Source of the DNA: an uncultured Candidatus Saccharibacteria bacterium
Lineage (GTDB): Bacteria > Patescibacteriota > Saccharimonadia > CAILAD01 > CAZGYV01
DNA length: 64,000 nucleotides
Direction: 5' to 3'
Assembly (NCBI GenBank): GCA_964530725.1
Contig: CAZGYV010000001.1
Location: 15,829 to 79,828 of the forward strand
A model generated the notes under the pieces. The model was not told the DNA's origin. It saw nothing but the letters and a program-made list of their open reading frames with translations, and made no database searches. This document shows positions 4,045-55,126 of the stretch, in pieces. Numbering within the stretch: position 1 is the first letter of the stretch; each line of letters begins with the position of its first letter. The position numbers and the translations under genes were made by a program.

Positions 4045-4071
4045 TTGTTATAGGCTTCTGAACCCTATAAT
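4045..4071 (+). promoter_or_regulatory. Putative promoter of KAP NTPase gene (TTGTTA-15-TATAAT; additional TTGACA at 4023-4028), near-leaderless
   Basis: TATAAT at 4066-4071 only 10 nt before ATG 4082; upstream TTGTTA/TTGACA -35-like hexamers. Confidence 0.3.
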
Positions 4072-4081
4072 ACAGTGTAAT

Positions 4082-7000
4082 ATGTCTACATTACATAAAA
4101 GAGTATGGGGTAAAATCAAAAGCTACTTTGTAAGGGATGAAGCCGAGAAGCAAACACACCCCCTAAAGTCTCTCAGGCCAGCAAAGAATATTGATGGTCA
4201 CTCCGCTTATGTTGACGACATCGCTGAAGCGGTTGCAAATGATGACATTCTGAATATAGCCCTTACTGGCAGCTACGGTTCTGGTAAAAGTAGTATCCTC
4301 AGAGTCTTCAAGGATTCAACAAAGAAGAATAAAGTAGTCCAAATATCGTTCTCAAGCCTAGGGGCGAATATACAGGGTTATATCAATAAGTCTGAAGATG
4401 ATGAACACGAGAAGCTAAACAATCTCACAAACCTAATCCAAAAAGAGATAGTCAAACAGATACTCTTCAAGGAAAAGTACAAGAATATACCGTATTCAAA
4501 GTACAAGAGAGTCTCCAGCCCACGCTTGCCCCTAGTTTTTCTTAACGCATCATTAATATCTATAGTTCTGTTGGCCGTATCATTCGCAAACGGGTGGCTG
4601 GCTCAATTGTTTAAAGTTGCAGCCATTTCGGATTTCTGGTGGCAGGTAGCACTCTGTGCAGACCTATTCATTATCAGTACCTCGCTTATTGCTATCTTCG
4701 TGCTTACGCTATCTGGCAAAATACGGATAGATAAAATTGGTGCATCTTCAATATCATTATCACTCTCGGGAAGTGCAAGTTATTTTGACGAATACTTAGA
4801 TGAGATTATCTACTTCTTTGAAGCTGGACGATACAACGTGGTTATCTTTGAAGATATTGATAGGTTTGAGAGCCTTTATATTTTCGAGACCCTTCGACAG
4901 CTCAACACCATTCTGAATAACTCAGAGCAGATAAAACAACCCGTGACTTTCATCTACGCAATTAAAGACAGTATTTTCGCCAAAGAAGTTGTTGATGCTA
5001 AGAACGACCACAAAGAGCGAAGTGCAAACAGAACCAAGTTCTTTGACCTCATCATTCCTGTAGTTCCTTTCATTACTAATGTGAACTCACAAGACCACAT
5101 ACTTCAGGTTTTTGATAGCGAGTACCGAGACATCATCAGAGAGCCAGCCTCAGTAGTGGCAAAGCATATTACTGATATGCGTCTTGTGGTTAACATCTAT
5201 AACGAGTTTCTAATATTCAAGGATAAAGTTGTACTCCCCGACTCAGGCTTATCTCTGGATAAGTTATTTGCAGTTGTTGCTTACAAAAACTGGAATCTGG
5301 ATGAGTTTGAAAAAGTTAAAGATGGTGATAGTTCAATCGATAAGGTTATTGCTGCACACAGCAAATATGTTGACGATAGAATACGTACCATTAACTCTGA
5401 GATACGAAGCAAAGAAAGTGCCCTAAAGACTATCAATGCCATTGCTGAACGGTCACAGAGCTTAGGTAAGGTTCTTACCGACTATATAGCCGATGTATTG
5501 CGACAGGTGCAAGGTTCTGCTCAGTCCTATAGCCTTAACAGCACTTCTTATGACTTAGAAGATTTCACAACCGAAGATTTTTGGAGCGATATCATCAAAG
5601 GGGGTGAGACCAGTACTCTTATTGTCACCTATCGAGCATCAACTGGCTACACACAAAACCTTACACTGACGGCAGCCGACATCAGTAGTATTTGTAGCGA
5701 CAGCCTTGATAAAACCCAGTGGGATACAAAAGCAGCAGAAGCTATTGAAGACGAAATAGGAGTACTACGAGCCGAAGCTAATAAACTCCCATACCAAAGT
5801 ATCAAGGAACTCATTCAGGAATCACCAGAGTTTCTCGCTAAATTAAAGGAGCTCGATGGCGGTAAGGTTGTTGCTGACGAGGTAGGATGGCAACTCATTA
5901 AGGCTGGCTATATCGATACCGAATTCGTACACTACACCTCGCTATACTACAGCACCAGCATGAGCCTCAAAGCTCGTAGCTTCTTGCTAAATAATGTCCG
6001 ACTGAACAAACAGTCTTTGCATCACAAGTTTGAAAACGATGATGACATACAAGCACTTCTAGAAAAAATGGGCAGTACCTATCTTAATGATAAGAGCATG
6101 TACAACATCTCAATAGTTGATTACTTGCTCAGGAAGGATGACTCAAGAGTAGATAAGATAATAGCTAACTTGGCAGGCGGTGACGCTGACGACCTTCAAT
6201 TTATCAATGCATATGTGAAGGAGGGTTCTGAAGTAACCAAGTTTATCCAACAGCTTGCTGCACGATGGGATGGAATCTTTACGTATATTACAGGTGATAA
6301 CGAAATGGATGATAAAAAGAAGGGTCGTTTCATTAGCCTTGCATTAACTGCTGGTTCTGAGAGTATCAAGTATAAAACCAATCCATCCGTTAAAGGTTTT
6401 ATTGAGGCCAATAAAACAAACGTCCAGATACTTACAAACGATAACCAAGATAGCTCAGCCGTTGATGATGCTTGCCGATTGCTCATGCAGTTTGGAATTG
6501 AATTCGATACTCTTGATAATCTGAACGAGCAAGCAAAGGAAGCCGTAAAAGATTATGGTCTCTATACGGTCAATGAGCAGAACATGACATCTATCCTTGG
6601 AAGTCCAAGAGTGCCTTTGGATACAATCAAACGCACAAATGAATATGTCTACTCTCACTTGCTAGGGCATCTTGGTGAGTACGCAGACCTATTCCAGAAT
6701 CGAGCAGGCTCAGAATATGCACTTGCAGGCGAAGACGGATTTGAAGCAGTAATTGATGAGGTGTCAAAGATTTCGATGGATGACTTAGGATTAATTCTGG
6801 CTAATGCTGACCTGTCGAACTGTATCGTTCAAGATATTAATAAACTTGGTTCAGACACATGGCCTCTACTGGTTGAGAATGTCATTCTGTCCAACACTCT
6901 AAGTAACGTTCTGACATACTTTGAGCTGTCACATGCCGATGACAAGACAGTAATCAATGACCTGCTGGCTACATACCTTACTGAGGCTGAAACGGTTGTA

Positions 7001-9154: not shown

Positions 9155-9376
9155 ATGCCACGACAAAGAACATGGAGCGGTCAGATGCTCACAATATCAG
9201 ATAAACCTATCATTACCACAGGAGAAGCTCGCAAGATACTAGGCAAGGGTTACGAAGAGCTTTCAGATGAACACCTAATGGGAGTAATTGTTTCACTTTC
9301 TAAGATAGCAGACTATTTCCTGACTAGGATTAGTGTTCCAGAAAACTATAAGGTATGTGGTAAAATGGGGATATGA
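9155..9376 (+). CDS. Small hypothetical protein (73 aa) immediately upstream of, and overlapping, the recombinase (possible accessory/directionality factor - speculative)
   Basis: ATGA overlap with recombinase start (9373-9376); no recognisable motif. Confidence 0.35.
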   Translation: MPRQRTWSGQMLTISDKPIITTGEARKILGKGYEELSDEHLMGVIVSLSKIADYFLTRISVPENYKVCGKMGI

Positions 9377-10971
9377 ATACGATGGATAAAAAAGAGCCAA
9401 TCAAAGTTTATGGTTATAAGCGTGTGTCTACTGAGGAGCAAGTTGATGGGATGTCTTTACATACTCAAGAGCTTGCAATTCAAGCCTACGCAGAGCAGCA
9501 CAATCTTGAGGTGGTGCATATCTTTCATGACGATGGAATATCCGCCAAAACAGCCAAGCGCCCGCAACTTCAAGAGATGCTCGCAAAACTCACAGCCAAA
9601 GATAACGAGGTGCGTGGTGTAGTTGTTTACAATCTCAGTCGTATCTCTCGTGATTTAGAGTCATACAGTCGTGATATAGGCTATCATCTTTCGGCAAAAG
9701 GCGTTCGTCTGTACTCTACAGTTGAAAACATTGACGATACACCAGAGGGTCGTTTGATGCGTAATATTGCACTCTCTATCCACCAGTACGATAACGATAC
9801 AAAAAGTCGAACAGTTAAAGACAATATGAAACAAGTTGCTCTTGAGGGTTGGTGGCAAGGCAATATCCCCTACGGATATAGCCGTGTTAAAGTACCGATT
9901 GGCATTAAGGACAAAGACGGTAAAACTAAGGAGCGTCTCACTCTCGAACCTGATAGCAATAACGACTTGAGCGACAAGATGCGTATGATGCTAGAGCGGT
10001 TCAGTGAGGGTGATTTGAAACAGTCCGAGCTTACTGATTATGCTGAGAGTATCGGCCTATACAGCCCAAAGGGTGAACGTTTTGCACCTCAGTCAATGAA
10101 TAACATTCTAAGAAATATTACCTATGCGGGCTTTGTGTGTAATAAGATGACAGACTTTGAACCTGTAAAGGCTAAACACGTAGGTCTTATCTCGCTTGAG
10201 ACATATTTACGTAATCAGGCTGTTCTTGATGGTCGTAAGCCTGATGAGGCGATGCCTCGCTTTACTGCTAGCTACCCTCTCAAGCACTCTCTGTTATGTA
10301 TTAACTGTCATAAACCCTTAACAGGTAGTGCACCTACTGGAGGTTCTGGTAAGAGCTCACCTCGCTATCACTGCACAAGATGTACGGGTACTGGCTCAAA
10401 AGGTCTTGATAGAACGAATGAGCTATTTGAAGCATTCTTAAACGATGTTACGCCTACAGATAAGATGATTAAGCTCTTTGATGTGATTGTACGCCGTATC
10501 GCCAAAGACAAGCTCTCAAACGTGAATAAGGCTATCAGCGATGTTAGAGACGATATGACCAAGATAGACACTGATATGCAGAAAGCACTTCAGTCTATGC
10601 TCGATGGCGATATCAGTAAGCAAGAGAAAGAAGACTACCAGTCGTCATTACGTATTAAGCGACTCAACCTAGAGGACGAACTTAATAAGCTACGAGACAT
10701 ACAGAGCCTCAATGAGTCTACTATTACCTATGTTTGTAACTTTATGGACGCTCCTGCTCGTATGTGGCAAGATGCAGACGCAGAGACAAAAGTCATCTTC
10801 CAACAGATGGTTACAGAGAACGGTATTGTATTCGACCTCAAGAACGAAAAGTTTGGAACGGACGGTTTGAGTATGTTTTACAGATTGAAAGACAACAAAA
10901 AAGACCCATCAAAGGCTGATGAGTCCCTTATGGTGATCCCACGGGGAATCGAACCCCGGTTACCAGGATGA
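9373..10971 (+). CDS. Large serine recombinase (resolvase/invertase catalytic domain + recombinase domain + zinc ribbon + coiled coil)
   Basis: N-terminal YGYKRVSTEEQ (catalytic Ser), VVVYNLSRISRD, C-terminal Cys cluster CINCH...HCTRCTG, 532 aa. Last ~13 codons are antisense to tRNA-Glu 3' end. Confidence 0.85.
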   Translation: MNTMDKKEPIKVYGYKRVSTEEQVDGMSLHTQELAIQAYAEQHNLEVVHIFHDDGISAKTAKRPQLQEMLAKLTAKDNEVRGVVVYNLSRISRDLESYSRDIGYHLSAKGVRLYSTVENIDDTPEGRLMRNIALSIHQYDNDTKSRTVKDNMKQVALEGWWQGNIPYGYSRVKVPIGIKDKDGKTKERLTLEPDSNNDLSDKMRMMLERFSEGDLKQSELTDYAESIGLYSPKGERFAPQSMNNILRNITYAGFVCNKMTDFEPVKAKHVGLISLETYLRNQAVLDGRKPDEAMPRFTASYPLKHSLLCINCHKPLTGSAPTGGSGKSSPRYHCTRCTGTGSKGLDRTNELFEAFLNDVTPTDKMIKLFDVIVRRIAKDKLSNVNKAISDVRDDMTKIDTDMQKALQSMLDGDISKQEKEDYQSSLRIKRLNLEDELNKLRDIQSLNESTITYVCNFMDAPARMWQDADAETKVIFQQMVTENGIVFDLKNEKFGTDGLSMFYRLKDNKKDPSKADESLMVIPRGIEPRLPG

Positions 10972-11005
10972 GAACCTGGCGTCCTAACCGCTAGACGATG
11001 GGACC
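10931..11005 (-). tRNA. tRNA-Glu (anticodon CUC)
   Basis: GGTCCCATCGTCTAGCGGTTAGGACGCCAGGTTCTCATCCTGGTAACCGGGGTTCGATTCCCCGTGGGATCACCA: 7-bp acceptor, anticodon loop TTCTCAT, T-loop TTCGATT, encoded CCA. Confidence 0.85.
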
Positions 11006-11122: not shown

Positions 11123-12358
11123 ATGGCAAACAAAAAACAACTCCCAAAAAGTTTTGATATCTCGGTACGGCGTCGATCGGTTAAAACGACTGATAAGAAT
11201 GACTCGAGCCTAGCCGCCAGTCAGGCTGAAGAGTCCGGCAAGGGCTTGTCGACCACGAAAAGTGATGATGACAAGCTACTCTCCTCGCCTGCTAAAAAAC
11301 GCCTATCGAAAAAAGCCAAAATCATCATAGCTGTCGTGGCCGGCGTATTTGTGGTGGTGGCCATCGTGGCGACTATCTACTTTTTAAATAAGAGTAAGCC
11401 CCAGGCAAGTCGCACTCAGACTGGTGTCAAGGTCTCGCAACCACCGGCCAAGCCACCAACCGCACCCAGCCCCTTGACTGGCGTTGAAGTTGATCCAGCC
11501 GCTGCTAAGCAGCCGGTTGTGGCTGTGGTGGTAGAGAATCTCTACCCTAGCGCTCGTCCGCAATCCGGGCTATCCGATGCTGGCGTGGTTTACGAGGCTC
11601 TAGCTGAGGGCGGCATCACCCGCTATCTGGCCTTGTTTCAAGATCACCTGGCAGCTGATATCGGTCCGGTGCGCTCTTTGCGGACTTATTTTGTCGACTG
11701 GGGCTTGGAGCACAACGCGCCAGTGGCTCATGTTGGCGGCAATGCCGACGCGCTTGATCTCATTAAGCCGCTGGGCATGAAAAACCTCGATCAGTTTCAT
11801 AATGGCAGTTATTTCCGGCGCATAAATACCCGTGCCGCGCCGCATAATGTTTATATCAAAAGCGAGCAGATGAAAAAGCTGCTGAATGATCGCGGCTTTG
11901 GCGGACCGCCAGATTTTAAGCCGTGGCCGCGCAAAGACGACACTAAGTCGCAGAGCTTAACCGCCTCGACTATTGAAGTTAATTTCTCCGGTCCGGACTA
12001 TAAAGCCCGCTTCGACTACGATCCGGCCACCAACAGCTACACTCGCTTTATTCGCAATGCGGCTGATATCGATGCTAACACTAAGGCGCCGATTAAAACT
12101 AAGAACATCATCGCGATGTATATGCCGACGCAATTCGGCGTTACTCGAATCGGCGAGTCGACTGTCGTCATGCAGACGGTCGGCAGCGGCAAGGCGGTGA
12201 TTTTCACAGATGGCGTGGCGACCGAAGCTACCTGGAAAAAAACTGACCACAAGGCACGTACTCAATTTTTAGACGCTAACGGCGCCGAGATCAAGCTCAA
12301 TCGAGGCCAAACCTGGGTGTCGGTGGTACCGGTCGGTAAAAGCGTTAGCTATAAATAA
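11123..12358 (+). CDS. DUF3048 (YerB-like) family membrane-anchored protein
   Basis: N-terminal basic tail + TM helix, Pro-rich linker, then PLTGVEVDP...RPQSGLSDAGVVYEALAEGGITRYLALFQ block typical of DUF3048. Confidence 0.65.
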   Translation: MANKKQLPKSFDISVRRRSVKTTDKNDSSLAASQAEESGKGLSTTKSDDDKLLSSPAKKRLSKKAKIIIAVVAGVFVVVAIVATIYFLNKSKPQASRTQTGVKVSQPPAKPPTAPSPLTGVEVDPAAAKQPVVAVVVENLYPSARPQSGLSDAGVVYEALAEGGITRYLALFQDHLAADIGPVRSLRTYFVDWGLEHNAPVAHVGGNADALDLIKPLGMKNLDQFHNGSYFRRINTRAAPHNVYIKSEQMKKLLNDRGFGGPPDFKPWPRKDDTKSQSLTASTIEVNFSGPDYKARFDYDPATNSYTRFIRNAADIDANTKAPIKTKNIIAMYMPTQFGVTRIGESTVVMQTVGSGKAVIFTDGVATEATWKKTDHKARTQFLDANGAEIKLNRGQTWVSVVPVGKSVSYK

Positions 12359-12787
12359 TTAATTACTGATATTGACAGTCGTGGTAGTGGAGTTGGTCAC
12401 AGCAGCGTTACCACCATTGCCTGATTGAGCTGACTGACTGGAATTATTGCTGACTGAGACATTGGTCGAGCCGTCTTCGTGCTGAACAGTCGAGCTGTGC
12501 GTCGAGGAGACGGCACCCTCACCTGTTTCGCTCTGCTCACTTTTTTGCTCGATAGTGACTACCGGGTCTTGGCTTGGTTGCTCCATTTGCGGGTTCTCCT
12601 TTGTATCCGGTAGTTTAACGGCGGGCTTGATGGTGGTCTGTGTCGCAACTAGGCTCTGCGTGGCGGCCAGACTCACTCCGCCAAGAATGGCGAGTACAAA
12701 AAATACAGCGCCAATCTTGGTCCATAGTTGATAGGTTGGATTAGAGTGAATCACTATCGAACTCCTCCCCTGAATAATATTGTACAC
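12359..12787 (-). CDS. Small membrane-anchored Ser/Thr/Asn-rich secreted protein; paralogous to C-terminal extension of SipW
   Basis: TM helix GAVFFVLAILGGVSLAA then low-complexity ending ...TNSTTTTVNISN; 3' ~30 nt share ~75% identity with 3' end of ORF 12821..13744 (TTGACAGTCGT core). Confidence 0.45.
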   Translation of the reverse strand: MYNIIQGRSSIVIHSNPTYQLWTKIGAVFFVLAILGGVSLAATQSLVATQTTIKPAVKLPDTKENPQMEQPSQDPVVTIEQKSEQSETGEGAVSSTHSSTVQHEDGSTNVSVSNNSSQSAQSGNGGNAAVTNSTTTTVNISN

Positions 12788-12820
12788 GATAAAAATTGTC
12801 TGTAAGAAATCTTGGATTGT

Positions 12821-13744
12821 TTACGGCTGAATGTTGACAGTCGTATTGGTGTTGTTCGAATTTGTCGCCTCTCCGCCGCTGCTGGTTTGCTGATTATTGT
12901 TGATAATATTGATATTATTGGTGTTTTCCTCATAAATCGAGCAGTTGTCATTAAATGTAATTTCATTAATCGAGCCCGGGCCGGTATTAGTGATTGTGGC
13001 GCTATTTTCTCCTTGCCCGCAAGGATTGTTACCGCCCTGCGAGTTGACTGATATCGTGTTGCCAATCAGGCTAGCCTGCGAAAAAAGAGCTGCCCAGCCT
13101 ACGCCGCTAGCGGCTATAAAGATGAAAAACACAAAGACGGCGCGTTTTATCAGCCCATCTATACTGGAAGGATGCTTCCTGGGGCTTGCTTGGTCGGACG
13201 GGTGGTTCTGCGGAGGTTTATTGTCGTGATCGTTTTTTTGATTTTTCGGCTCAACCTCGGGGTGCTGAAGTGATCGCCGCAGCAGCCTAATTTCATCAAA
13301 AATTATAAACGCGGCCGGTATAAAGACAAAAATGATTAGTAGCGGCCAACCTCGGGCATAGCTGAACGCTTGGCCGATTTTTGGATAATGCCAAATTACT
13401 TTACCGACAACATTGCCGCCCATGATCTCTTGATCGGCTACTTGATTTGCGTCACCCTTGGTGATGAGAGTTGGCAAGCCATTGCTTTTTATTTCGACGA
13501 CGCGGTGAGTAATGGTTTGTTTCGGATTATTGGGGTTGATATAGGTAACGACATCACCGGATTTTAGTTGCCTAATCGGCTCGCGCTTGATGACTATCAG
13601 CGAGCCTTGCGGGATGGCGGGGTCCATACTGCCGGTTAGTACCGACATGGCTTTGAGGCCGGTTACAGGCAACAGAAAGACCGCGAGTATGGCCCCGCTG
13701 ACAACACAGATCGCAGCGGCTATAATTTTGATAGCTTTGATCAT
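12821..13744 (-). CDS. sipW: Signal peptidase I, archaeal/ER type (SipW-like), with C-terminal TM + Asn/Thr-rich extension
   Basis: SVLTGSMDPAIPQGSLIVI (SGSMEP-type Ser box) and ITHRVVEI His box, N-terminal TM; 307 aa vs ~190 for SipW, extra ~120 aa contain second TM and NxT-rich tail ending TTVNIQP. Confidence 0.7.
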   Translation of the reverse strand: MIKAIKIIAAAICVVSGAILAVFLLPVTGLKAMSVLTGSMDPAIPQGSLIVIKREPIRQLKSGDVVTYINPNNPKQTITHRVVEIKSNGLPTLITKGDANQVADQEIMGGNVVGKVIWHYPKIGQAFSYARGWPLLIIFVFIPAAFIIFDEIRLLRRSLQHPEVEPKNQKNDHDNKPPQNHPSDQASPRKHPSSIDGLIKRAVFVFFIFIAASGVGWAALFSQASLIGNTISVNSQGGNNPCGQGENSATITNTGPGSINEITFNDNCSIYEENTNNINIINNNQQTSSGGEATNSNNTNTTVNIQP

Positions 13745-13796
13745 GGTTTAAATTCCGCTCATACTTTATAAATTTATTATTAAGGTTTTATTTTAT

Positions 13797-14333
13797 TTAA
13801 GGTTGTGTGCCGGTAAACACGACATCAAAATTGTCAATGGTCGCCTGCGTGCCAGTAACAGCATCAGTGTCCACCTTGATTACGAGCTTGTAATTACTTG
13901 TCACACCAGCGTTGATCGTTTCTACTGCCACATTGCTGTTAATTAGATTGGCTAGTGTTGTGGTAACGACATTGCTGTCGTCTAGCCGGTTGATTTTAAC
14001 GTGAACTTTAGCAAAGTCAGTGAAGTTCGAGTAAGTTGGCACTACTGGTACATGAGCGGTTACGCCAAGATTGACGCCGCCGTTGTTTTTGAGGTCAAAC
14101 AGGAATGGCAGAGTATCATTTCCAGGTACAACATTGGTCCAGCTATTACCTTGGGCAGTCGAACCAAAAGTGCCAGTTGTATTGATCTGCAAGTCGGCCG
14201 AAGCGGTCGACAGCGTGTTGCTCGTCAAAGTAGCAGTTGAGCCTAGGTTCGCGAAGGTCACGCCTACTACCAGCGCCATAGTAGCACCAATAGAAACGAT
14301 TGCTCGCGAGATAGCCGCGCGCTTAGTCACCAT
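13797..14333 (-). CDS. TasA/camelysin-like secreted protein with SipW-cognate-type signal peptide
   Basis: MVTKRAAISRAIVSIGATMALVVGVTFANLGSTATL... resembles TasA-family N-terminus (basic n-region, h-region, A-F-N), directly upstream of sipW. GGGGG RBS 8 nt before ATG 14333. Confidence 0.55.
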   Translation of the reverse strand: MVTKRAAISRAIVSIGATMALVVGVTFANLGSTATLTSNTLSTASADLQINTTGTFGSTAQGNSWTNVVPGNDTLPFLFDLKNNGGVNLGVTAHVPVVPTYSNFTDFAKVHVKINRLDDSNVVTTTLANLINSNVAVETINAGVTSNYKLVIKVDTDAVTGTQATIDNFDVVFTGTQP

Positions 14334-14506
14334 ACATATCACCCCCTTCCTATATAGATTAGCCTCACAAAAGCTTAAGCTTTATTATACACCTTTCACA
14401 ATAATTACAATGAATTTTTGTACAGACTTATATAAATGCTAAAAAACATACTTTGCGCTATAATTGTAGTTAGAATGATTGTTATGCTATCTCAAGGATC
14501 ACTCCC

Positions 14507-15862
14507 ATTAAAAAGCCAGCACAAACCGGCTCCACTTTAGTCGAAATTGTTATTAGTTTGAGCATCGTGTCGGTGGTTATTTTGGCTGTCTTGTCGGTGA
14601 TGGTGTTTAATATGCAGATCATATCAAGCGGCAAATCAAGAGCTCTGGCGATGGCTTTGGCAAACGAAAAATTGGAAAATCTGCGCAATATGCCCTATGA
14701 CAGCTTGGCTACAGTGCATGGTCCGATCTATCCAGGAGGCTCTATCGTTGACGACGAGGATGTGACTGTTGGCGGTATCGCCATGGTTGTGCACACCGAT
14801 ATAAGTTATAACGACGATCCATTTGATGGCAATTTTGCCGGTACTATCGCCGGTAAGCCGCAGGATTTTTATCCCTATGACTACAAGAAAGTTACCATCA
14901 CGATCTACCTGAAGTCAGGCAATCGCAAACTGGCCAATATTAGTACCGACGTGGCCGGCAAAGTAGCCGAGACAGCCACGAACACCGGCATCATCTTGAT
15001 TAAAGTAATAGACGCCAATGGCAATCCGGTCGATGGCGCTTCCGTTCACCTAACAAACCCTACTCCAAGTCCGGCAGTTAATATCACGACCACGACCGAT
15101 AATCAGGGCCAGGTATTGATTCCCAAGATGCCACCGGACAGTGGCAACGGCTATCATCTGACAGCGACGAAAGCGGGCTTTTCGACTGATCAGACCTATC
15201 CCGTTTCCGTTCAAACACCCTCTCCGACTCAGCCCGATTTTAGTGTTCAGGCTCAACAGGTCGTAACCCAGACGTTGGCTATTGATCAGCTGGCTAATAC
15301 TCTAACAGTTAAAGCTATTGATATCAGTGGTAATCCAATTAGCGGGGCTGCTGTTAATATCCATGGTCAAAAAACTATTAATTCTAGCCCGATAGTCTAT
15401 AAGTATAGTTCGGTGCAGACGACAAATGGCAGCGGCGAGATCAGCCTGACAGCTTTGGAGTGGGATTCTTATGACTTGAGTGTTAGTGGGCACAGTATTC
15501 TCGCCTCCTCCCCTTACAAGCCCTTCGCTCTCAATCCTAGCGCTAGTCTGACTGTTACATTGACACTGGACACCCCGTCGACAAGCCGACCAATTATCGA
15601 AGCGGTCACGCCGAGTAGCGCGGTCTCCGGCAGCCCTAATGTCCAAATTGATATCACCGGACAGAACTTAAATGGTGCAACCTTTTTACTGCGCAAATCG
15701 GGTAGCGCTGATATTGTAGCGGGCAACCTGTCTTCACCCGATTCCAGTACGCTTTCTGGCACTCTTGATCTATCCGGCGCGGCAGTTGGCAACTGGGACA
15801 TTGTGGTGACAAAAAGTGGCCAATCAACCACTCAGTCAGGAGGATTTAATGTCGCTAACTAA
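14507..15862 (+). CDS. Type IV prepilin-like (minor pilin/pseudopilin) protein with C-terminal Ig/carboxypeptidase-regulatory-like repeats; apparent ATT initiation codon
   Basis: In-frame upstream of the track TTG start is (ATT)KKPAQTG|STLVEIVISLSIVSVVILAV = classic short basic prepilin leader + G|xTLxE; AAGGAT 8 nt before ATT; no ATG/GTG/TTG in frame. Repeats GNPVDGASVHL / GNPISGAAVNI. Confidence 0.55.
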   Translation: MKKPAQTGSTLVEIVISLSIVSVVILAVLSVMVFNMQIISSGKSRALAMALANEKLENLRNMPYDSLATVHGPIYPGGSIVDDEDVTVGGIAMVVHTDISYNDDPFDGNFAGTIAGKPQDFYPYDYKKVTITIYLKSGNRKLANISTDVAGKVAETATNTGIILIKVIDANGNPVDGASVHLTNPTPSPAVNITTTTDNQGQVLIPKMPPDSGNGYHLTATKAGFSTDQTYPVSVQTPSPTQPDFSVQAQQVVTQTLAIDQLANTLTVKAIDISGNPISGAAVNIHGQKTINSSPIVYKYSSVQTTNGSGEISLTALEWDSYDLSVSGHSILASSPYKPFALNPSASLTVTLTLDTPSTSRPIIEAVTPSSAVSGSPNVQIDITGQNLNGATFLLRKSGSADIVAGNLSSPDSSTLSGTLDLSGAAVGNWDIVVTKSGQSTTQSGGFNVAN

Positions 15863-16454
15863 ATCGATCAACCCTTCCGCCCCGCGCGGATTGTCGCTGA
15901 TTGAGCTACTTATCGCAATGTCGATGGGGTTAGTTATCGGCATCGTGTTGACAAGCTTAATCGTTAATACCAGTCGCTCATATCGGTTCGCGCAGCTGCA
16001 ATCACAAACGGCCACCCAGATATCCACCTACTTGGAGCGCATGAGCCGGGTTTTACGCGGCTCGACTGATGTAGTTAGTGCCAGCTCGACAAGCCTAACT
16101 GTCTACGCATATTTTTCGCCGCGTGATAATGTGCCCGACAAGGTGCGTTATTTCGTGGACACCGATAATGCGCTTAAGGTGGGTGTCATCAAGGCGACGG
16201 GCAGTGCCCCCAACTACACCTATAACAGCTCCGATGAGACCGTGCAAACATTACTTTCTGACCTAAGACACGGCTCAACGCCGGTTTTTACCTACTATGA
16301 TGACAATAATAACCAGCTAACCGGCACCATTACGCCTGCTACAGTTAAGGAGATCGGCATTCGCCTGGAGCTCAACCCTGATCAGAGCATTTTAAAACAG
16401 AATGTAACGGGACAGACTAGGATAAATTTGCGCAATAGAAAGACTAACTTATGA
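15849..16454 (+). CDS. Type IV prepilin-like protein (minor pilin)
   Basis: AGGAGG 5 nt upstream of ATG 15849; MSLTKSINPSAPRG|LSLIELLIAMSMGLVIGIV prepilin cleavage/methylation motif. Track start 15816 is GTG without RBS. Confidence 0.65.
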   Translation: MSLTKSINPSAPRGLSLIELLIAMSMGLVIGIVLTSLIVNTSRSYRFAQLQSQTATQISTYLERMSRVLRGSTDVVSASSTSLTVYAYFSPRDNVPDKVRYFVDTDNALKVGVIKATGSAPNYTYNSSDETVQTLLSDLRHGSTPVFTYYDDNNNQLTGTITPATVKEIGIRLELNPDQSILKQNVTGQTRINLRNRKTNL

Positions 16455-17866
16455 AGTATCAATTAGGTCGTCTAAAAAATAACCGCCGTGGCTTCTCGAT
16501 GGTGCAAGTCATTATCACATCGGTATTCTTGATGAGTATCGCGCTTATTATGGCAACTTCAGCGGTGGTGAATTTAAAATATACCAGCTACGTAGAAAAA
16601 TCTTATGATGCCAACTCGGTTGCTGAGGCCGGTATAAATTATTATCTATGGCATTTGGCACACAACATCAGCGATTACTGTGACGGTCAGGCTTGTGGCA
16701 CGCAAGGGCCTGACGGCTACGGGCCGTTCACACATCAATACAAAGACAGTAGCGGTAAAGTAGTTGGTACTTACGAGCTATATATCAAGCCGCCGCCGGC
16801 CTATTCGAGCATGACGACAGTCAAGTCAATCGGTCGGATCAATGGCTTAAACAAATCCCGCGTCTTGCAGGCGCAGCTGGCTGTCCCATCGTTCGCGCAG
16901 TATGCTTTGCTGACCGGTACGGAGATTTGGATTGGCCCAAGCGAGCGAGTTAATGGCCCGCTGCACTCCAATGTCGGCGTCCACTTTGACGGTATCGCCG
17001 ATGGTCCGGTAACGGCTGCTAACGCGACTTACCGGCCAACTGCTCAGTTTGGCGGTGACGGGCAGATGCATAATGGTGTTTGGGGTAATGGCGGACCTCA
17101 GTCATATTGGAGCTTTCCGGTGCCGCCAGTTGACTTTAACGCTGTCACGGCGGACTTGCAAAAAATCAAAACCGACGCCCAGAGCAATGGCGTCTACCTG
17201 CCACCGACCAATCCCGGCAATCCCAGCTCAAAGCTAGGCTATTACCTAGAATTAAAATCAAACAAGTCAATTGATGTTTATCGTGTCACCCAAGAACGTT
17301 GCACTAGCCTATCGAGAACCTTCGTTGCCAACTACGCCAAGCCGGCCAATGGCTTGCTCTACGTTGAGGATAATGTCTGGGTGCAGTCTAAGTCTGGTGA
17401 TAGGTACAACGACCGCCTGACGATTGCGGCTGCCTACCTGCCCAGTAGCGCCGCGCGTGATAAATCGATTACTATCACCGGCGATATTTTATACAGTGCT
17501 AAAGACGGCACGGCCGCAATTGGCTTAATTGCTCAGAAAGACGTCAAGGTGAATAATGTAGCGCCATATAATCTAGAAATCGACGCTGCCCTGCTCGCTC
17601 AAAAAGGCCATACATTTTTTGAAAGCAGCACCCTTTCGGCCAATTGTAGCAATCAAGTCAAGGGTACGATAACTGTGCACGGCGCGATCAGCAGCTATCT
17701 ATTTTGGACCTGGACTTATGTTACGGGTGGCAACAATGTGATCGATGGCTACGCCACGACTCTCTCGACCTATGATAGTTATTTGAAGTTTAACCCGCCG
17801 CCGAGCTTTCCGACCACCGGCACTTTTTCGGTATTAAACTTTAGAGAATTACTAGAAAATCCTTGA
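16451..17866 (+). CDS. Large pseudopilin-like protein (PilX/minor pilin-like, lacks Glu5)
   Basis: MKYQLGRLKNNRRG|FSMVQVIITSVFLMSIALIMA leader + hydrophobic segment; ATGA overlap with upstream pilin. Confidence 0.55.
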   Translation: MKYQLGRLKNNRRGFSMVQVIITSVFLMSIALIMATSAVVNLKYTSYVEKSYDANSVAEAGINYYLWHLAHNISDYCDGQACGTQGPDGYGPFTHQYKDSSGKVVGTYELYIKPPPAYSSMTTVKSIGRINGLNKSRVLQAQLAVPSFAQYALLTGTEIWIGPSERVNGPLHSNVGVHFDGIADGPVTAANATYRPTAQFGGDGQMHNGVWGNGGPQSYWSFPVPPVDFNAVTADLQKIKTDAQSNGVYLPPTNPGNPSSKLGYYLELKSNKSIDVYRVTQERCTSLSRTFVANYAKPANGLLYVEDNVWVQSKSGDRYNDRLTIAAAYLPSSAARDKSITITGDILYSAKDGTAAIGLIAQKDVKVNNVAPYNLEIDAALLAQKGHTFFESSTLSANCSNQVKGTITVHGAISSYLFWTWTYVTGGNNVIDGYATTLSTYDSYLKFNPPPSFPTTGTFSVLNFRELLENP

Positions 17867-17875
17867 AATATTTGC

Positions 17876-19327
17876 CTATTTAAGCTTGGCGATGACACTG
17901 TTTAGGCGGCTGATTGTCTCATCAGTGCCAAGAACTGCGATTGTCTCAAACAGGCCTGGGGCGGCCGTCTTGCCGGTGATAGCGACTCGTATCGGGTAGA
18001 ATAGCTGGCCGGCTCCTACACCAAGCTCTTCGGCTAGTTGGCGCAAACAAGTCTCGATGGCGGTAGTGGTTTTGCTCTTGCATTCGCTTAGAGTAGCAAC
18101 GGTGCTAGATAATATATTCAACGTCCCTGGTTGGTCGCTTTTAGCGCAAACTAGCTCGATCATCTTTGATTTCACCTTCGGAGCTTTAAAGAAAAACTCC
18201 AATGCGTCGGGGCTTTGAGAAAAAGTTTTGATGCGCTCGCGCTCTAGAGCGGCTGCTCTCTTGATGTAGTCTTGGTTATGACTGGCGACATCAATATTAG
18301 CCTTTTCGAGCTGCTCAATAATTTTTTCCAAATAAGCTTGGTCGCTAATGACCTCGCGAATATAAACGCCATTCATCCAGTTAAGTCGGTCGCGGTCAAA
18401 TACTGCCGGACTTTTTTGAATTCTATCAACTGCGAATTTGCTTATTAGTTGGTCGAGTGAGTATATTTCTTGCTCGCTGCCATCGTTCCAGCCGAGGAGG
18501 GCTAAAAAGTTAATCAAAGCCTCCGGCAAGTAGCCTGCTTGCCGGTAATCCAATACATCGGTGTCGCCGCTGCGTTTAGATAATTTCTTGCCATCACTGC
18601 CATTGATGACCGGCAAATGAATCCACTCCGGTCGCTGCCAACCAAGCAAGTCATAGAGCATCGCGTGTTTGGGTGTGCTGGCGATAAATTCATCGCCGCG
18701 AATAACGTGACTAATCTTCATCTGATGATCATCGACCACGTTAGCAAAGTTGTAAGTCGGGAATCCATCGGCTTTGACAATAATAAAATCGTCAATGATG
18801 TCGTTATTAACCTTGAATTCTCCCCTGACCTCATCGCGCCAAACAGTACTGCCGGGGCCTACTTTGAGCCGGATGGGCAGATTGCCGCCTGATTGCTGAC
18901 TACTTGTCGGCTCCATCGCATGACGATAGACAAATGGCTTGCCAGCTGCAATGGCAGCTTGGCGTTTTTTGTCAAAATCTTCTGACGTAATTCGCGAATA
19001 ATATGCCTGGCCGCTATCCACCAATTGCTCGGCAATCTGCCGGTAGTTACCGAGGCGTTCGGACTGGACATAAGGGCCATGGGCGCCTTTATGGTCGCCA
19101 AGCCAATAGCCCTCGTCTGGCACGAGGCCGAGCCATTGCAGGCTGTGCTGGATTTGTTCAACTCCCGCTTCGACGAATCGTTCCCGATCGGTGTCTTCGA
19201 GGCGTAAAATAAATTCCCCGTCGTGATGACGGGCAAACAAATAGTTAAATAAGGCCGTGCGGGCAGAGCCGACGTGCATCATGCCGGTCGGGCTGGGTGC
19301 GAAACGAACTCGAACCTTTTGCTTCAT
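17876..19327 (-). CDS. gltX: Glutamyl-tRNA synthetase
   Basis: RFAPSPTGMMHVGSARTALFN (HIGH region), KLSKR (KMSKS-type) motif, 483 aa. Confidence 0.9.
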   Translation of the reverse strand: MKQKVRVRFAPSPTGMMHVGSARTALFNYLFARHHDGEFILRLEDTDRERFVEAGVEQIQHSLQWLGLVPDEGYWLGDHKGAHGPYVQSERLGNYRQIAEQLVDSGQAYYSRITSEDFDKKRQAAIAAGKPFVYRHAMEPTSSQQSGGNLPIRLKVGPGSTVWRDEVRGEFKVNNDIIDDFIIVKADGFPTYNFANVVDDHQMKISHVIRGDEFIASTPKHAMLYDLLGWQRPEWIHLPVINGSDGKKLSKRSGDTDVLDYRQAGYLPEALINFLALLGWNDGSEQEIYSLDQLISKFAVDRIQKSPAVFDRDRLNWMNGVYIREVISDQAYLEKIIEQLEKANIDVASHNQDYIKRAAALERERIKTFSQSPDALEFFFKAPKVKSKMIELVCAKSDQPGTLNILSSTVATLSECKSKTTTAIETCLRQLAEELGVGAGQLFYPIRVAITGKTAAPGLFETIAVLGTDETISRLNSVIAKLK

Positions 19328-19355
19328 TCAATTATTATAGCCGATAATAGTAATT

Positions 19356-27842: not shown

Positions 27843-27918
27843 ATTTTCGTATCAATACCTATGTTTATTTAATGTTGTGTTAACAAATATCTTACAAATC
27901 ATTATAATCTAATGAAGT

Positions 27919-29316
27919 ATGATTTCAAAGCAAACAAGGACGGCACTAGTCTATATCGCCAGTATTATCGCGACGGTCTTGGGCACTATAATTTTAGTCG
28001 CTTTAGCTCGTGGCTATAGCTACGATTTTTTTAGCGGCCAAATCAAAGAGACCGGCCTCGTTATTATTAATTCGCAGCCCTCGGGAGCTTCCATCACTCT
28101 CAATGGCGCTTCCACCAAGCATAAGACGCCATTCCGCCTAGTAAATGCCGAGCCAGGCAATTTAACAGTTGGCCTCAAGAGAGATGAATACCGTGATTGG
28201 CAAAGACAGCTCGTAGTCGAAGCGCAGGAGGTTAGCTTTGCCGACCGCGCGCTGTTAATACCTAAAACTATCCTCTATGACAACTTGTACGGCGACTTTC
28301 GCGCGACATCTGTTGTCCAGTCCAATGATAATCGCCGAGTCGCTTTTGTGACTACTTCGCCCACTCTATCGATCTGGGTATCGGACAATGAGAAGCCGCC
28401 GGTAAGGATATACCAGCCGCCGACACCGACCACGCCAGAAGAAACCGTTACCGCTATCAGCGACCTGCAGCTATCGGCCAATAACGGCAATCAATTACTT
28501 TTTAAGACTACGAGTAATGCCAAGACTCACTTTTTTACTACTCCAACCACTGGCAATCAGATAGCTACCGATATAAATGCTAGCTTTGCGATCGGCGGTG
28601 GCACGCTGACGTTCAATCCTGCCAACGATCGAGAGCTCTTCTGGCTGTACGAGGGCAAGTTGCGCAAGCTCAATCTTGACTCAAAGGCAACCGGCAGCGT
28701 AATGGCTGAAAACATCGCCTACATGAAGATCAAAAGTGATCGAATTTTCTACATCTCAGCCCTCACCCCGACCAACTTAAGTCATGAATTGTGGGGTATG
28801 GATCTGAACGGTGTGCGTAAAATTAAAATTTTAAGCTCAGTCGTTGATAGTCCGGAGTATAAACTCGATTTTGCTCGTGTTCAAAGCCAGGATTACTTGA
28901 TGCTGCTAGCCTCGAAAGACAAGACGGCGGTGCTGTACAGTAATATTTACGACAAGCCTGTTAGCTCGGTTCTTAGCAAAGACGCGACCGATTTTACTTT
29001 TTCGCCCAATGGTACGTATCTGGTCATCAATCATGCCCAGACGGTCAAGGCGTACAACTTGGAGCTGACCGATCGCTTTAATCACAAAACTAGCCTCGCT
29101 GGCCTCACCAGCTGGCGTTGGCTTGATGACTATCATTTGCTTGTCATTACCAATGGTCAGCTGCGGATCATGGACTTTGATGGTCAAAATGACCAGCTTA
29201 TTAGCTCACCGGCCGATCAGGTTGCAACAGTACTGCCAAATAACAACGTCGAGTCAATCAACTACCTGGTGGCTGGACAGGTCAAAAAACTCTACCTTAC
29301 GCTTGAGAAAAAATAG
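27919..29316 (+). CDS. Membrane-anchored PEGA-domain protein with C-terminal beta-rich (propeller-like) region
   Basis: N-terminal TM, then SQPSGASITLNGASTKHKTPFRL...GLKRDEYRDWQRQLVV (PEGA-like). Confidence 0.5.
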   Translation: MISKQTRTALVYIASIIATVLGTIILVALARGYSYDFFSGQIKETGLVIINSQPSGASITLNGASTKHKTPFRLVNAEPGNLTVGLKRDEYRDWQRQLVVEAQEVSFADRALLIPKTILYDNLYGDFRATSVVQSNDNRRVAFVTTSPTLSIWVSDNEKPPVRIYQPPTPTTPEETVTAISDLQLSANNGNQLLFKTTSNAKTHFFTTPTTGNQIATDINASFAIGGGTLTFNPANDRELFWLYEGKLRKLNLDSKATGSVMAENIAYMKIKSDRIFYISALTPTNLSHELWGMDLNGVRKIKILSSVVDSPEYKLDFARVQSQDYLMLLASKDKTAVLYSNIYDKPVSSVLSKDATDFTFSPNGTYLVINHAQTVKAYNLELTDRFNHKTSLAGLTSWRWLDDYHLLVITNGQLRIMDFDGQNDQLISSPADQVATVLPNNNVESINYLVAGQVKKLYLTLEKK

Positions 29317-40362: not shown

Positions 40363-40393
40363 TAGTACTAATTATAACACACCCAATCAAGTC

Positions 40394-43297: not shown

Positions 43298-43337
43298 TAG
43301 CTTTAATTATAACTTATTTAAGTGAATAGACGTTTAC

Positions 43338-55086: not shown

Positions 55087-55126
55087 GATTCTATTATACG
55101 CTCATTCTCTACCCATGAGCAAAAGC

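Follow-up and report, generated by a model that had tools for sequence, protein, structure and literature searches.

A minor-pilin gene of a Candidatus Saccharibacteria bacterium, apparently separated from its start codon by a TC duplication, that may be translated from AUU

This study concerns the first gene of a putative minor-pilin operon in 64,000 nucleotides (nt) of DNA from an uncultured Candidatus Saccharibacteria bacterium (GenBank assembly GCA_964530725.1, contig CAZGYV010000001.1, positions 15,829 to 79,828 of the forward strand), a stretch that we call the window. The reading frame of this gene (gene 1, encoding pilin 1) spans 14474-15862, opens past a TAG stop at 14471-73, and encodes NDCYAISRITPIKKPAQTG↓STLVEIVISLSIVSVV by translation of the window, where the arrow marks the prepilin peptidase site. 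As an earlier note on this DNA had described, at coordinates that we confirm (14494-99, 14507-09, and 14558), the frame holds a complete prepilin N-terminus. A short basic leader ending in Gly-1, (I)KKPAQTG↓S, lies in frame at 14507-14530 in a layout shared by orthologues, and Glu+5 is followed by a hydrophobic helix of ~20 residues (STLVEIVISLSIVSVVILAVLSVMVF), such that the N-terminus reads ...IKKPAQTG↓STLVEIVISL.... The note had also claimed that the frame contains no ATG, GTG, or TTG from the stop at 14471 to TTG 14558, and we found none. The coordinates of these and later features are collected in Table 1.

Table 1. Features of the pilin locus, numbered from the first letter of the window, and Shine-Dalgarno-led AUC/AUU/AUA (SD-AUH) starts of distant relatives, numbered within their own metagenome loci. 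ORF, open reading frame.
Feature	Coordinates	Strand	Remarks
Zero-difference tract between lineages, 377 nt	14172..14548	.	contains frameshift
TATAAT -10 box, pilin operon promoter	14459..14464	+	invariant in window, L001, L003, L101, and L102; 17-19 nt before orthologous ATG
Ancestral ATG, now out of frame	14484..14486	+	aligns with ATG of P0002, P0003, P0004, and P0007
Short out-of-frame ORF, MLSQGSLPLKSQHKPAPL	14484..14540	+	opened by ancestral ATG; 18 codons; stop TAG 14538-40
TCTC, inferred TC duplication (+2 frameshift) in codon 3	14490..14493	+	MAFFT 2-nt gap vs L001
Shine-Dalgarno-like AAGGA(T)	14494..14499	+	8 nt before ATT; 11 nt before A5 run
Candidate AUU initiation codon ATT	14507..14509	+	in pilin frame, 3' of SD-like motif; leader would be (M)KKPAQTG
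Prepilin ORF (gene 1)	14507..15862	+	PilV/GspI-like minor pilin; CarboxypepD_reg + Ig-like C-terminal domains; 450-residue body
A5G run, possible -1 slip site	14510..14515	+	TTA AAA AGC in ATG frame; tRNA-Lys can re-pair AAA one base back
Prepilin peptidase site	14528..14545	+	GGC TCC ACT TTA GTC GAA; Gly-1 = GGC 14528-30, Ser+1 at 14531, Glu+5 = GAA 14543-45
Second minor pilin gene	15849..16454	+	MSLTKSINPSAPRG↓LSLIELLIAM (...PRG↓LSLIELL); own SD CAGGAGG; 14-nt overlap with gene 1
Third pilin-like gene	16451..17866	+	MKYQLGRLKNNRRG↓FSMVQVIIT (...RRG↓FSMVQVI)
SD-AUH start, L017	1422-1436		
SD-AUH start, L018	1446-1460		
SD-AUH start, L019	1399-1412		
SD-AUH start, L028	1778-1790		
SD-AUH start, L030	2458-2472		
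SD-AUH start, L032	802-816		
SD-AUH start, L033	2456-2470		
SD-AUH start, L066	2452-2466		
Further SD-AUH loci			L025, L036, L039, L041, L042, L029, L063, L076

A homologue search of 5.8 billion proteins returned 118 relatives, most of them 440-480 aa long; genomic relatives of the window bear the label Candidatus Saccharibacteria. Together with two further members of the P0001 cluster, these form a family set of 120 proteins, 81 of which carry the N-terminus M-(short basic leader)-G↓(F/S)T(L)(I/V)E at the same place. The prepilin leader of gene 1 is therefore no chance resemblance. In the window and in orthologues P0002-P0007, Ser takes the place of Phe at +1 (G↓STLVE, G↓STFIE); relatives farther removed carry G↓FTL(I/V)E, with Ala at -1 in a few (KKRA↓FTLVE). 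The Pfam model N_methyl (PF07963) scored 20.9 bits against pilin 1, for a cut-off of 21.2, and many orthologues have a precomputed PF07963 match; the body of the protein matched CarboxypepD_reg, SpaA-type, and Ig-like domains. The weak NCBIfam matches to GspI, PilV, and ComGE involved the N-terminus only (the N-terminal 55 residues align) and fell below the equivalog cut-offs (gspI 27.3 vs 44.35; pilV 22.2 vs 52.2). Pilin 1 is therefore best described, on its sequence, as a minor-pilin-like protein outside the PilV/GspI equivalogs.

All orthologous loci keep the three pilin genes in this order, with gltX at the end. Given this conserved order and the N-terminal motif and domain matches, we take gene 1 to be the first gene of a minor-pilin operon. 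PilB, PilC, and PilD were not among the 24 window proteins scanned (12.8-26.5 kb and 33.3-45.8 kb). Public gene calls start gene 1 at ATG 14651 (403 aa, NCBI) or TTG 14582 (426 aa, ENA), and all are truncated relative to the orthologues, which are 457-460 aa long. Comparison with these orthologues upholds the homology of the prepilin N-terminus, which a protein begun at the TTG would lack, as the orthologues keep the leader rather than beginning at the downstream TTG.

To locate the lost start, the window was aligned at the DNA level with the orthologous lineages P0002 (80%), P0003 (72%), P0004 (63%), and P0007 (58%), all of which place two extra window bases directly after ATG CTA. Removing one TC restores ATG CTA TCA AGG ATC ACT CCC ATT AAA AAG, which encodes MLSRITPIKKPAQTG↓STLVE. 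This repaired leader has 15 residues, equal in length to the P0002 leader (MLPNKNPIRHSPPIG), shares the MLSR start of L101 (MLSRKLFAPRG), and resembles the MALSRR leader of L102 (MALSRRIPSPLG; TCA CGC AGG ATC CCT). Because ATG 14484 aligns with the orthologous ATGs and the repaired leader fits the orthologues, the lesion is a +2 frameshift, most simply explained by duplication of TC to TCTC. The pilin gene is thus disrupted relative to every orthologue, each of which is read in a single frame, while the prepilin frame itself (leader, Gly-1, Glu+5, and body) is left intact. A second ATG at 14475-77 is in phase with 14484, and the ORF that it opens in the +1 frame (MIVMLSQGSLPLKSQHKPAPL, 21 codons) ends at the same TAG as the shorter one.

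This alignment also changes how the candidate start is to be read. The ATT at 14507 is an ancestral internal Ile codon, for which L001 has ATC within "NPI," and the orthologous Saccharibacteria ATG sits seven codons upstream of it. Likewise, AAGGAT is ancestral Ser-Arg-Ile coding sequence (TCA AGG ATC; CGC AGG ATC in L102). Therefore, neither element evolved for the new start. The earlier note placed AAGGAT correctly at 8 nt before ATT, but the motif is not a purpose-built ribosome-binding site. Its suggestion that an ATG had been misread as ATT was wrong, given the ancestral Ile, the ancestral ATG at 14484, and the agreement of four assemblies (see below), and ATT is not the only possible initiator, as the frame offers two further near-cognate codons, ATC 14489 and ATC 14498. 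The TC duplication, the +1-frame ATGs with their upstream ORF, and a possible -1 slip at the A5 run were absent from that note.

Two other accounts of the lesion were considered and rejected. A deletion from A6 to A5 gave a far worse DNA alignment than a gap right after ATG CTA, and it is further disfavored because TC repair recreates both the MLSR start of orthologues and the exact length of the P0002 leader. Phase variation was dismissed, as slipped-strand switching needs a longer repeat than (TC)2. A scan of the window for further long ORFs whose conserved N-terminal extension lacks a start gave no convincing case, leaving gene 1 as the only such gene in the window.

The lesion is a genuine allele rather than an assembly error, because the 5' end is base-for-base equal in four assemblies and two lineages: the window itself (an NCBI metagenome-assembled genome), L015 (Logan, SRR8893623), L009 (ENA ERZ27258524), and L010 (Logan, SRR30303814). 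L009 and L010 are equal to each other, and the window differs from them at 407 of ~7,280 positions (94.4% identity). Two lineages 5.6% apart, the only two of this locus in the collection searched, therefore both carry the frameshift, and their haplotypes differ close to it, at 14549 and 14554. The frameshift allele is thus established in two genetic backgrounds.

Between these lineages, the pilin 1 frame has accumulated 46 synonymous and only 2 non-synonymous codon changes (V15I and N264S). Its synonymous (dS) and non-synonymous (dN) divergence are 0.156 and 0.002, and the resulting dN/dS of 0.0125 makes it the most constrained of the three pilins in the comparison of the window lineage with L009 (pilin 2: dS 0.431, dN 0.027, dN/dS 0.062; pilin 3: dS 0.273, dN 0.008, dN/dS 0.029). 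No further stops or indels were found in the pilin 1 ORF in either lineage. The dN/dS value shows that the gene mattered through almost all of the divergence between the lineages, but it says nothing of selection after the duplication. The frameshift lies within a 377-nt tract that is the longest identical stretch of the 7.3-kb comparison, a length that 0 of 20,000 simulations reached (maximum, 301 nt). The tract in turn lies inside a 1.1-kb block of low divergence (13571-14681, 12 differences). Because the intergenic region is not conserved relative to L001, the tract indicates recent shared ancestry by recombination, not functional constraint. Therefore, the lesion may be younger than the substitutions, and dN/dS cannot speak for selection after it arose.

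Divergence is mosaic across the whole comparison of window positions 11583-18864 with L009. Zero-difference tracts (14172-14548, 13791-14036, 13572-13781, and 12609-12792) are separated by stretches of 5-13% difference, and dS ranges from ~0.04 to 0.43 across adjacent genes. This is a signature of frequent short-tract homologous recombination.

How genes are started elsewhere in this genome bears on what the frameshift would do. A Shine-Dalgarno (SD) motif precedes 9 of 37 window genes, against a chance background of 10%, and many window genes have TATAAT 6-11 nt before ATG. Such TATAAT or TAAAAT boxes at 6-11 nt, without an SD, occur for example at 440-463, 4062-4084, 19328-19345, 27898-27921, 40363-40380, 43298-43315, and 55087-55103, which suggests widespread leaderless or near-leaderless mRNAs in this Saccharibacterium. 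The pilin operon fits this pattern in all Saccharibacteria orthologues, which have a short leader, an ATG start, and no SD. In the window, transcription would start near 14471; a consensus promoter scan found no pilin promoter, as a -35 box is lacking although TATAAT is conserved. The SD-like AAGGA at 14494-98 has a functional spacing to ATT 14507, although SDs elsewhere in the window are stronger. Around the start, the RNA is unstructured (z = +1.05), and folding revealed neither a start-occluding nor a frameshift-stimulating structure. Two "terminator-like" hairpins lay inside coding sequence and were not significant, and an Rfam search of the whole window returned only two tRNAs, neither near the pilin start.

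Distant members of the same pilin family appear to lack canonical starts as a rule of their clade. Gene calls for ~25 family members start inside or after the FTLVE motif, and we examined the DNA of three of these and then of 80 metagenome loci. At least eight distinct loci (L017, L018, L019/20, L028, L030, L032, L033, and L066) have an intact leader and G↓FTL(I/V)E, and their frames contain no ATG, GTG, or TTG from there upstream to the nearest stop. They carry GGAGGGG (or GGAGGG), one codon, and then an in-frame ATC, ATT, or ATA, at an SD spacing of 3-6 nt; examples are CCG GAG GGG AAT ATC (L017), TCG GAG GGG ATT ATC (L018), and GGA GGG AAT ATC (L066). Overall, ~17 distinct loci have this arrangement. 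In the de-duplicated table, ATC occurs 10 times, ATA 5 times, and ATT 4 times, a tally that includes a few loci outside the arrangement (L068, L089). The clade belongs to uncultured Patescibacteria, and its mature N-terminus is FTL(I/V)E(I/V)(L/M)(I/V)D ("FTLVEILVD"). The AUH codon marks the position of the start, because relatives hold GTG (L035 and L047) or TTG (L045) at the homologous position. Other SD-led genes of the same loci start with ATG, GTG, or TTG.

The membrane-protein gene just upstream of the pilin in L025 (1949-1975) reads GGGGGAATAA ATA CTT TTT GCA ACT CAT (ILFATH...), where its orthologues in L017 and L019 have ATG (MLLGTH, MLFTAH). It is likely a second ATA start in that lineage, and because of it, AUH initiation may be lineage-wide rather than pilin-specific. 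A literature search on AUC and AUU starts in pilins or in Patescibacteria turned up no such paper. Initiation at AUA, AUC, and AUU in E. coli reaches ~1-2% of the AUG level, and the only confirmed AUU genes are infC and pcnB (10.1101/063800). By analogy, weak AUH initiation would be compatible with gene 1 function, because the pilin family seems to work with a weak start codon across this whole clade.

Considering all of the above, the reading that we favor, at a probability of roughly 45%, is that gene 1 is a hypomorphic allele translated from the AUU at 14507, with AAGGA upstream. The duplicated TC in codon 3 has shifted ATG 14484 to another frame, where it opens the 18-codon ORF, and few ribosomes would start instead at the AUU by way of the pre-existing AAGGA, giving (M)KKPAQTG↓STLVE.... 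Prepilin peptidase would then cut off everything before Ser+1, leaving a mature pilin equal to the ancestral one. Only the amount of pilin would drop, which could be tolerable for a low-copy tip or priming pilin. The leader made from AUU would have eight residues, basic and similar in size to many orthologous leaders. The intact ORF in both lineages, the dN/dS of 0.0125, the use of SD sites in the genome, and the unstructured start region all support this reading.

Several observations weigh against initiation at AUU. Both AAGGAT and ATT are ancestral codons, with nothing specially evolved for an AUU start, and AAGGA is a much weaker SD than the GGAGGGG of the AUH clade. The close Saccharibacteria orthologues all start with ATG and have no SD, and the near-cognate start is not conserved as a start among them, being seen only in the distant clade. 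Moreover, the 5'-proximal AUGs at 14475 and 14484 are retained and should capture ribosomes on a short-leader mRNA to make a peptide of 18-21 residues, and the upstream ORF that they open reads across the AUU. Because the frameshift lies in a zero-divergence tract, it may also be very recent and recombination-spread, in which case dN/dS is silent on selection since the lesion. Taken as a single locus, gene 1 is a frameshift allele of uncertain consequence.

This uncertainty leaves room for the gene to be a young null allele, in which the TC duplication abolished the prepilin and too little time has passed for the ORF to decay. Homologous recombination would have moved it between lineages, either hitch-hiking with the neighboring secreted-protein gene or favored because pilin loss was useful. 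A frameshift relative to every orthologue is what a null would look like, the identical tract and its 12-difference block imply recent shared ancestry of exactly that segment, and the putative SD and AUU are ancestral coding sequence. In addition, deletion of several T4P-2 minor pilins in Nanosynbacter lyticus TM7x causes no detectable phenotype (PMC11623550). Still, a deleterious null would not be expected at consensus frequency in three or four samples and on two backgrounds, neither lineage has a second lesion, and the gene lost would be the most constrained of the three pilins, so we consider a null rather unlikely, though it deserves serious weight. The AUU initiation and the nascent inactivation that the earlier note had offered thus both stay viable, and the third option, sequencing error, does not. 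The artefact explanation is hardly credible even though the sequence is metagenome-derived and the lesion is a short repeat: the four assemblies came from different pipelines and agree base for base, the two haplotypes differ nearby, and TCTC is not an error-prone homopolymer.

The retained AUGs could instead feed the pilin frame directly. If ribosomes started at AUG 14484 (or 14475) and tRNA-Lys slipped by -1 on A_AAA at 14510-13, the product would be MLSQGSLPLKKPAQTG↓STLVE.... Such slippage would use an efficient, conserved AUG, the ATG frame is +1 relative to the pilin frame and meets no stop until after the A5 run, and the leader sequence would be immaterial, as it is cleaved off. AAGGA could act as the SD does in dnaX, where it lies 10 nt before the slippery site, compared with 11 nt here. 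We nonetheless regard slippage as improbable. The site (CCA TTA AAA AGC; A UUA AAA or A_AAA_AGC) has no X XXY YYZ heptamer and allows single-tRNA slippage only, no 3' stimulatory structure is present (14516-14600 folds at z = -0.78, with 39 of 200 shuffles folding at least as well), and the single-frame orthologues lack the A-run (L001 has ATCAGGCAT), such that nothing marks a programmed site. An AUU start and -1 slippage are not mutually exclusive, and their mature products would be identical, since whatever precedes Ser+1 is cut off by the peptidase. By contrast, an N-terminally truncated protein from TTG 14558, TTG 14582, or ATG 14651 would have neither the cleavage site nor Glu+5. The frame offers no other canonical starts, TTG 14558 sits 18 nt past the short-ORF stop where re-initiation is conceivable, and a hydrophobic stretch would be left. 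However, none of the three has an SD, the product could neither be cut by prepilin peptidase nor join a pilus, and the lost residues (STLVEIVIS...) are the most conserved part of the family, making this outcome very unlikely.

The AUU reading of gene 1 gains interest from its wider setting, as leader cleavage makes rescue plausible and the same family has conserved SD-AUH starts elsewhere in Patescibacteria. It is conceivable, if less likely than not, that one Patescibacteria minor-pilin family is deliberately translated from weak AUC, AUU, or AUA codons behind a strong SD, throttling a tip or priming pilin, and that the window allele is an independent, recent conversion to AUU that is viable since the leader is cleaved. 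If true, clade-wide SD-AUH initiation in one gene would extend the natural cases of start-codon dosage control past infC and pcnB, to organisms for which translation studies are scarce. More generally, prepilin genes tolerate start-site rearrangements unusually well because their leaders are cleaved. Type IV pili serve in host attachment, and this allele, which would silence or throttle a candidate tip pilin and has passed between lineages through recombination, is a candidate target of selection on interactions with hosts or phages. There is also a practical consequence for annotation: gene 1 and ~25 relatives are called from inside or after the class III signal peptide, and the pilins are thereby mislabeled as signal-less "carboxypeptidase regulatory-like" proteins.

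The surroundings of the operon showed two further features. The - strand region 12821-14342, divergent from it, holds two genes. One has a strong SD (GGAAGGGGGTGA) and encodes a 178-aa protein that begins with a hydrophobic signal-like segment and had no Pfam or NCBIfam match. The adjoining one encodes an S26 signal peptidase whose long tail is rich in Pro and Asn; the pair recalls SipW and its substrate and falls within the low-divergence block that bears the frameshift. Farther away, at 9373-11005, an ORF for a 532-aa large serine recombinase overlaps by 38 nt a tRNA gene encoded on the other strand (10934-11005), possibly marking an element integrated at the tRNA.

Among known systems, E. 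coli infC and pcnB are similar to the window gene in having no canonical start, an AUU behind a Shine-Dalgarno sequence, and low expected initiation. However, the AUU of infC is conserved and serves autoregulation by initiation factor 3, whereas in the window a recent frameshift has exposed an AUU that was ancestrally an internal Ile codon and whose use we infer. The "FTLVEILVD" clade is closer in that it is the same family, again with the gene ahead of two pilin genes and an intact leader without a canonical start, with AUH behind an SD. It differs in its strong GGAGGGG, its conservation over many loci, and the absence of any leftover out-of-frame ATG, and the window case has an independent origin by a 2-bp duplication among relatives that use ATG without an SD. 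The dnaX frameshift site (A AAA AAG, with its SD 10 nt upstream and a 3' hairpin) resembles the A-rich run of the window, which follows an SD-like element and would also need a -1 shift, but the window site lacks the heptamer, the 3' structure, and the conservation.

At the protein level, type IV minor pilins and type II secretion system pseudopilins (PilV, GspI, ComGE) share the class III signal peptide, Glu+5, and large accessory C-terminal domains with pilin 1. The differences are Ser for Phe at +1 in this Saccharibacteria subgroup and, for gene 1, an N-terminus-only match to the PilV and GspI models well below the cut-offs and no canonical start. The three-gene minor-pilin cluster of the window also resembles the PilV/W/X minor pilins of Nanosynbacter lyticus TM7x (PMC11623550). 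Finally, the GTC start of Streptomyces sigR (PMC5472188) offers a parallel in which a non-canonical start holds down the level of one specific protein, although there the codon is a different one and the regulatory role has experimental proof.

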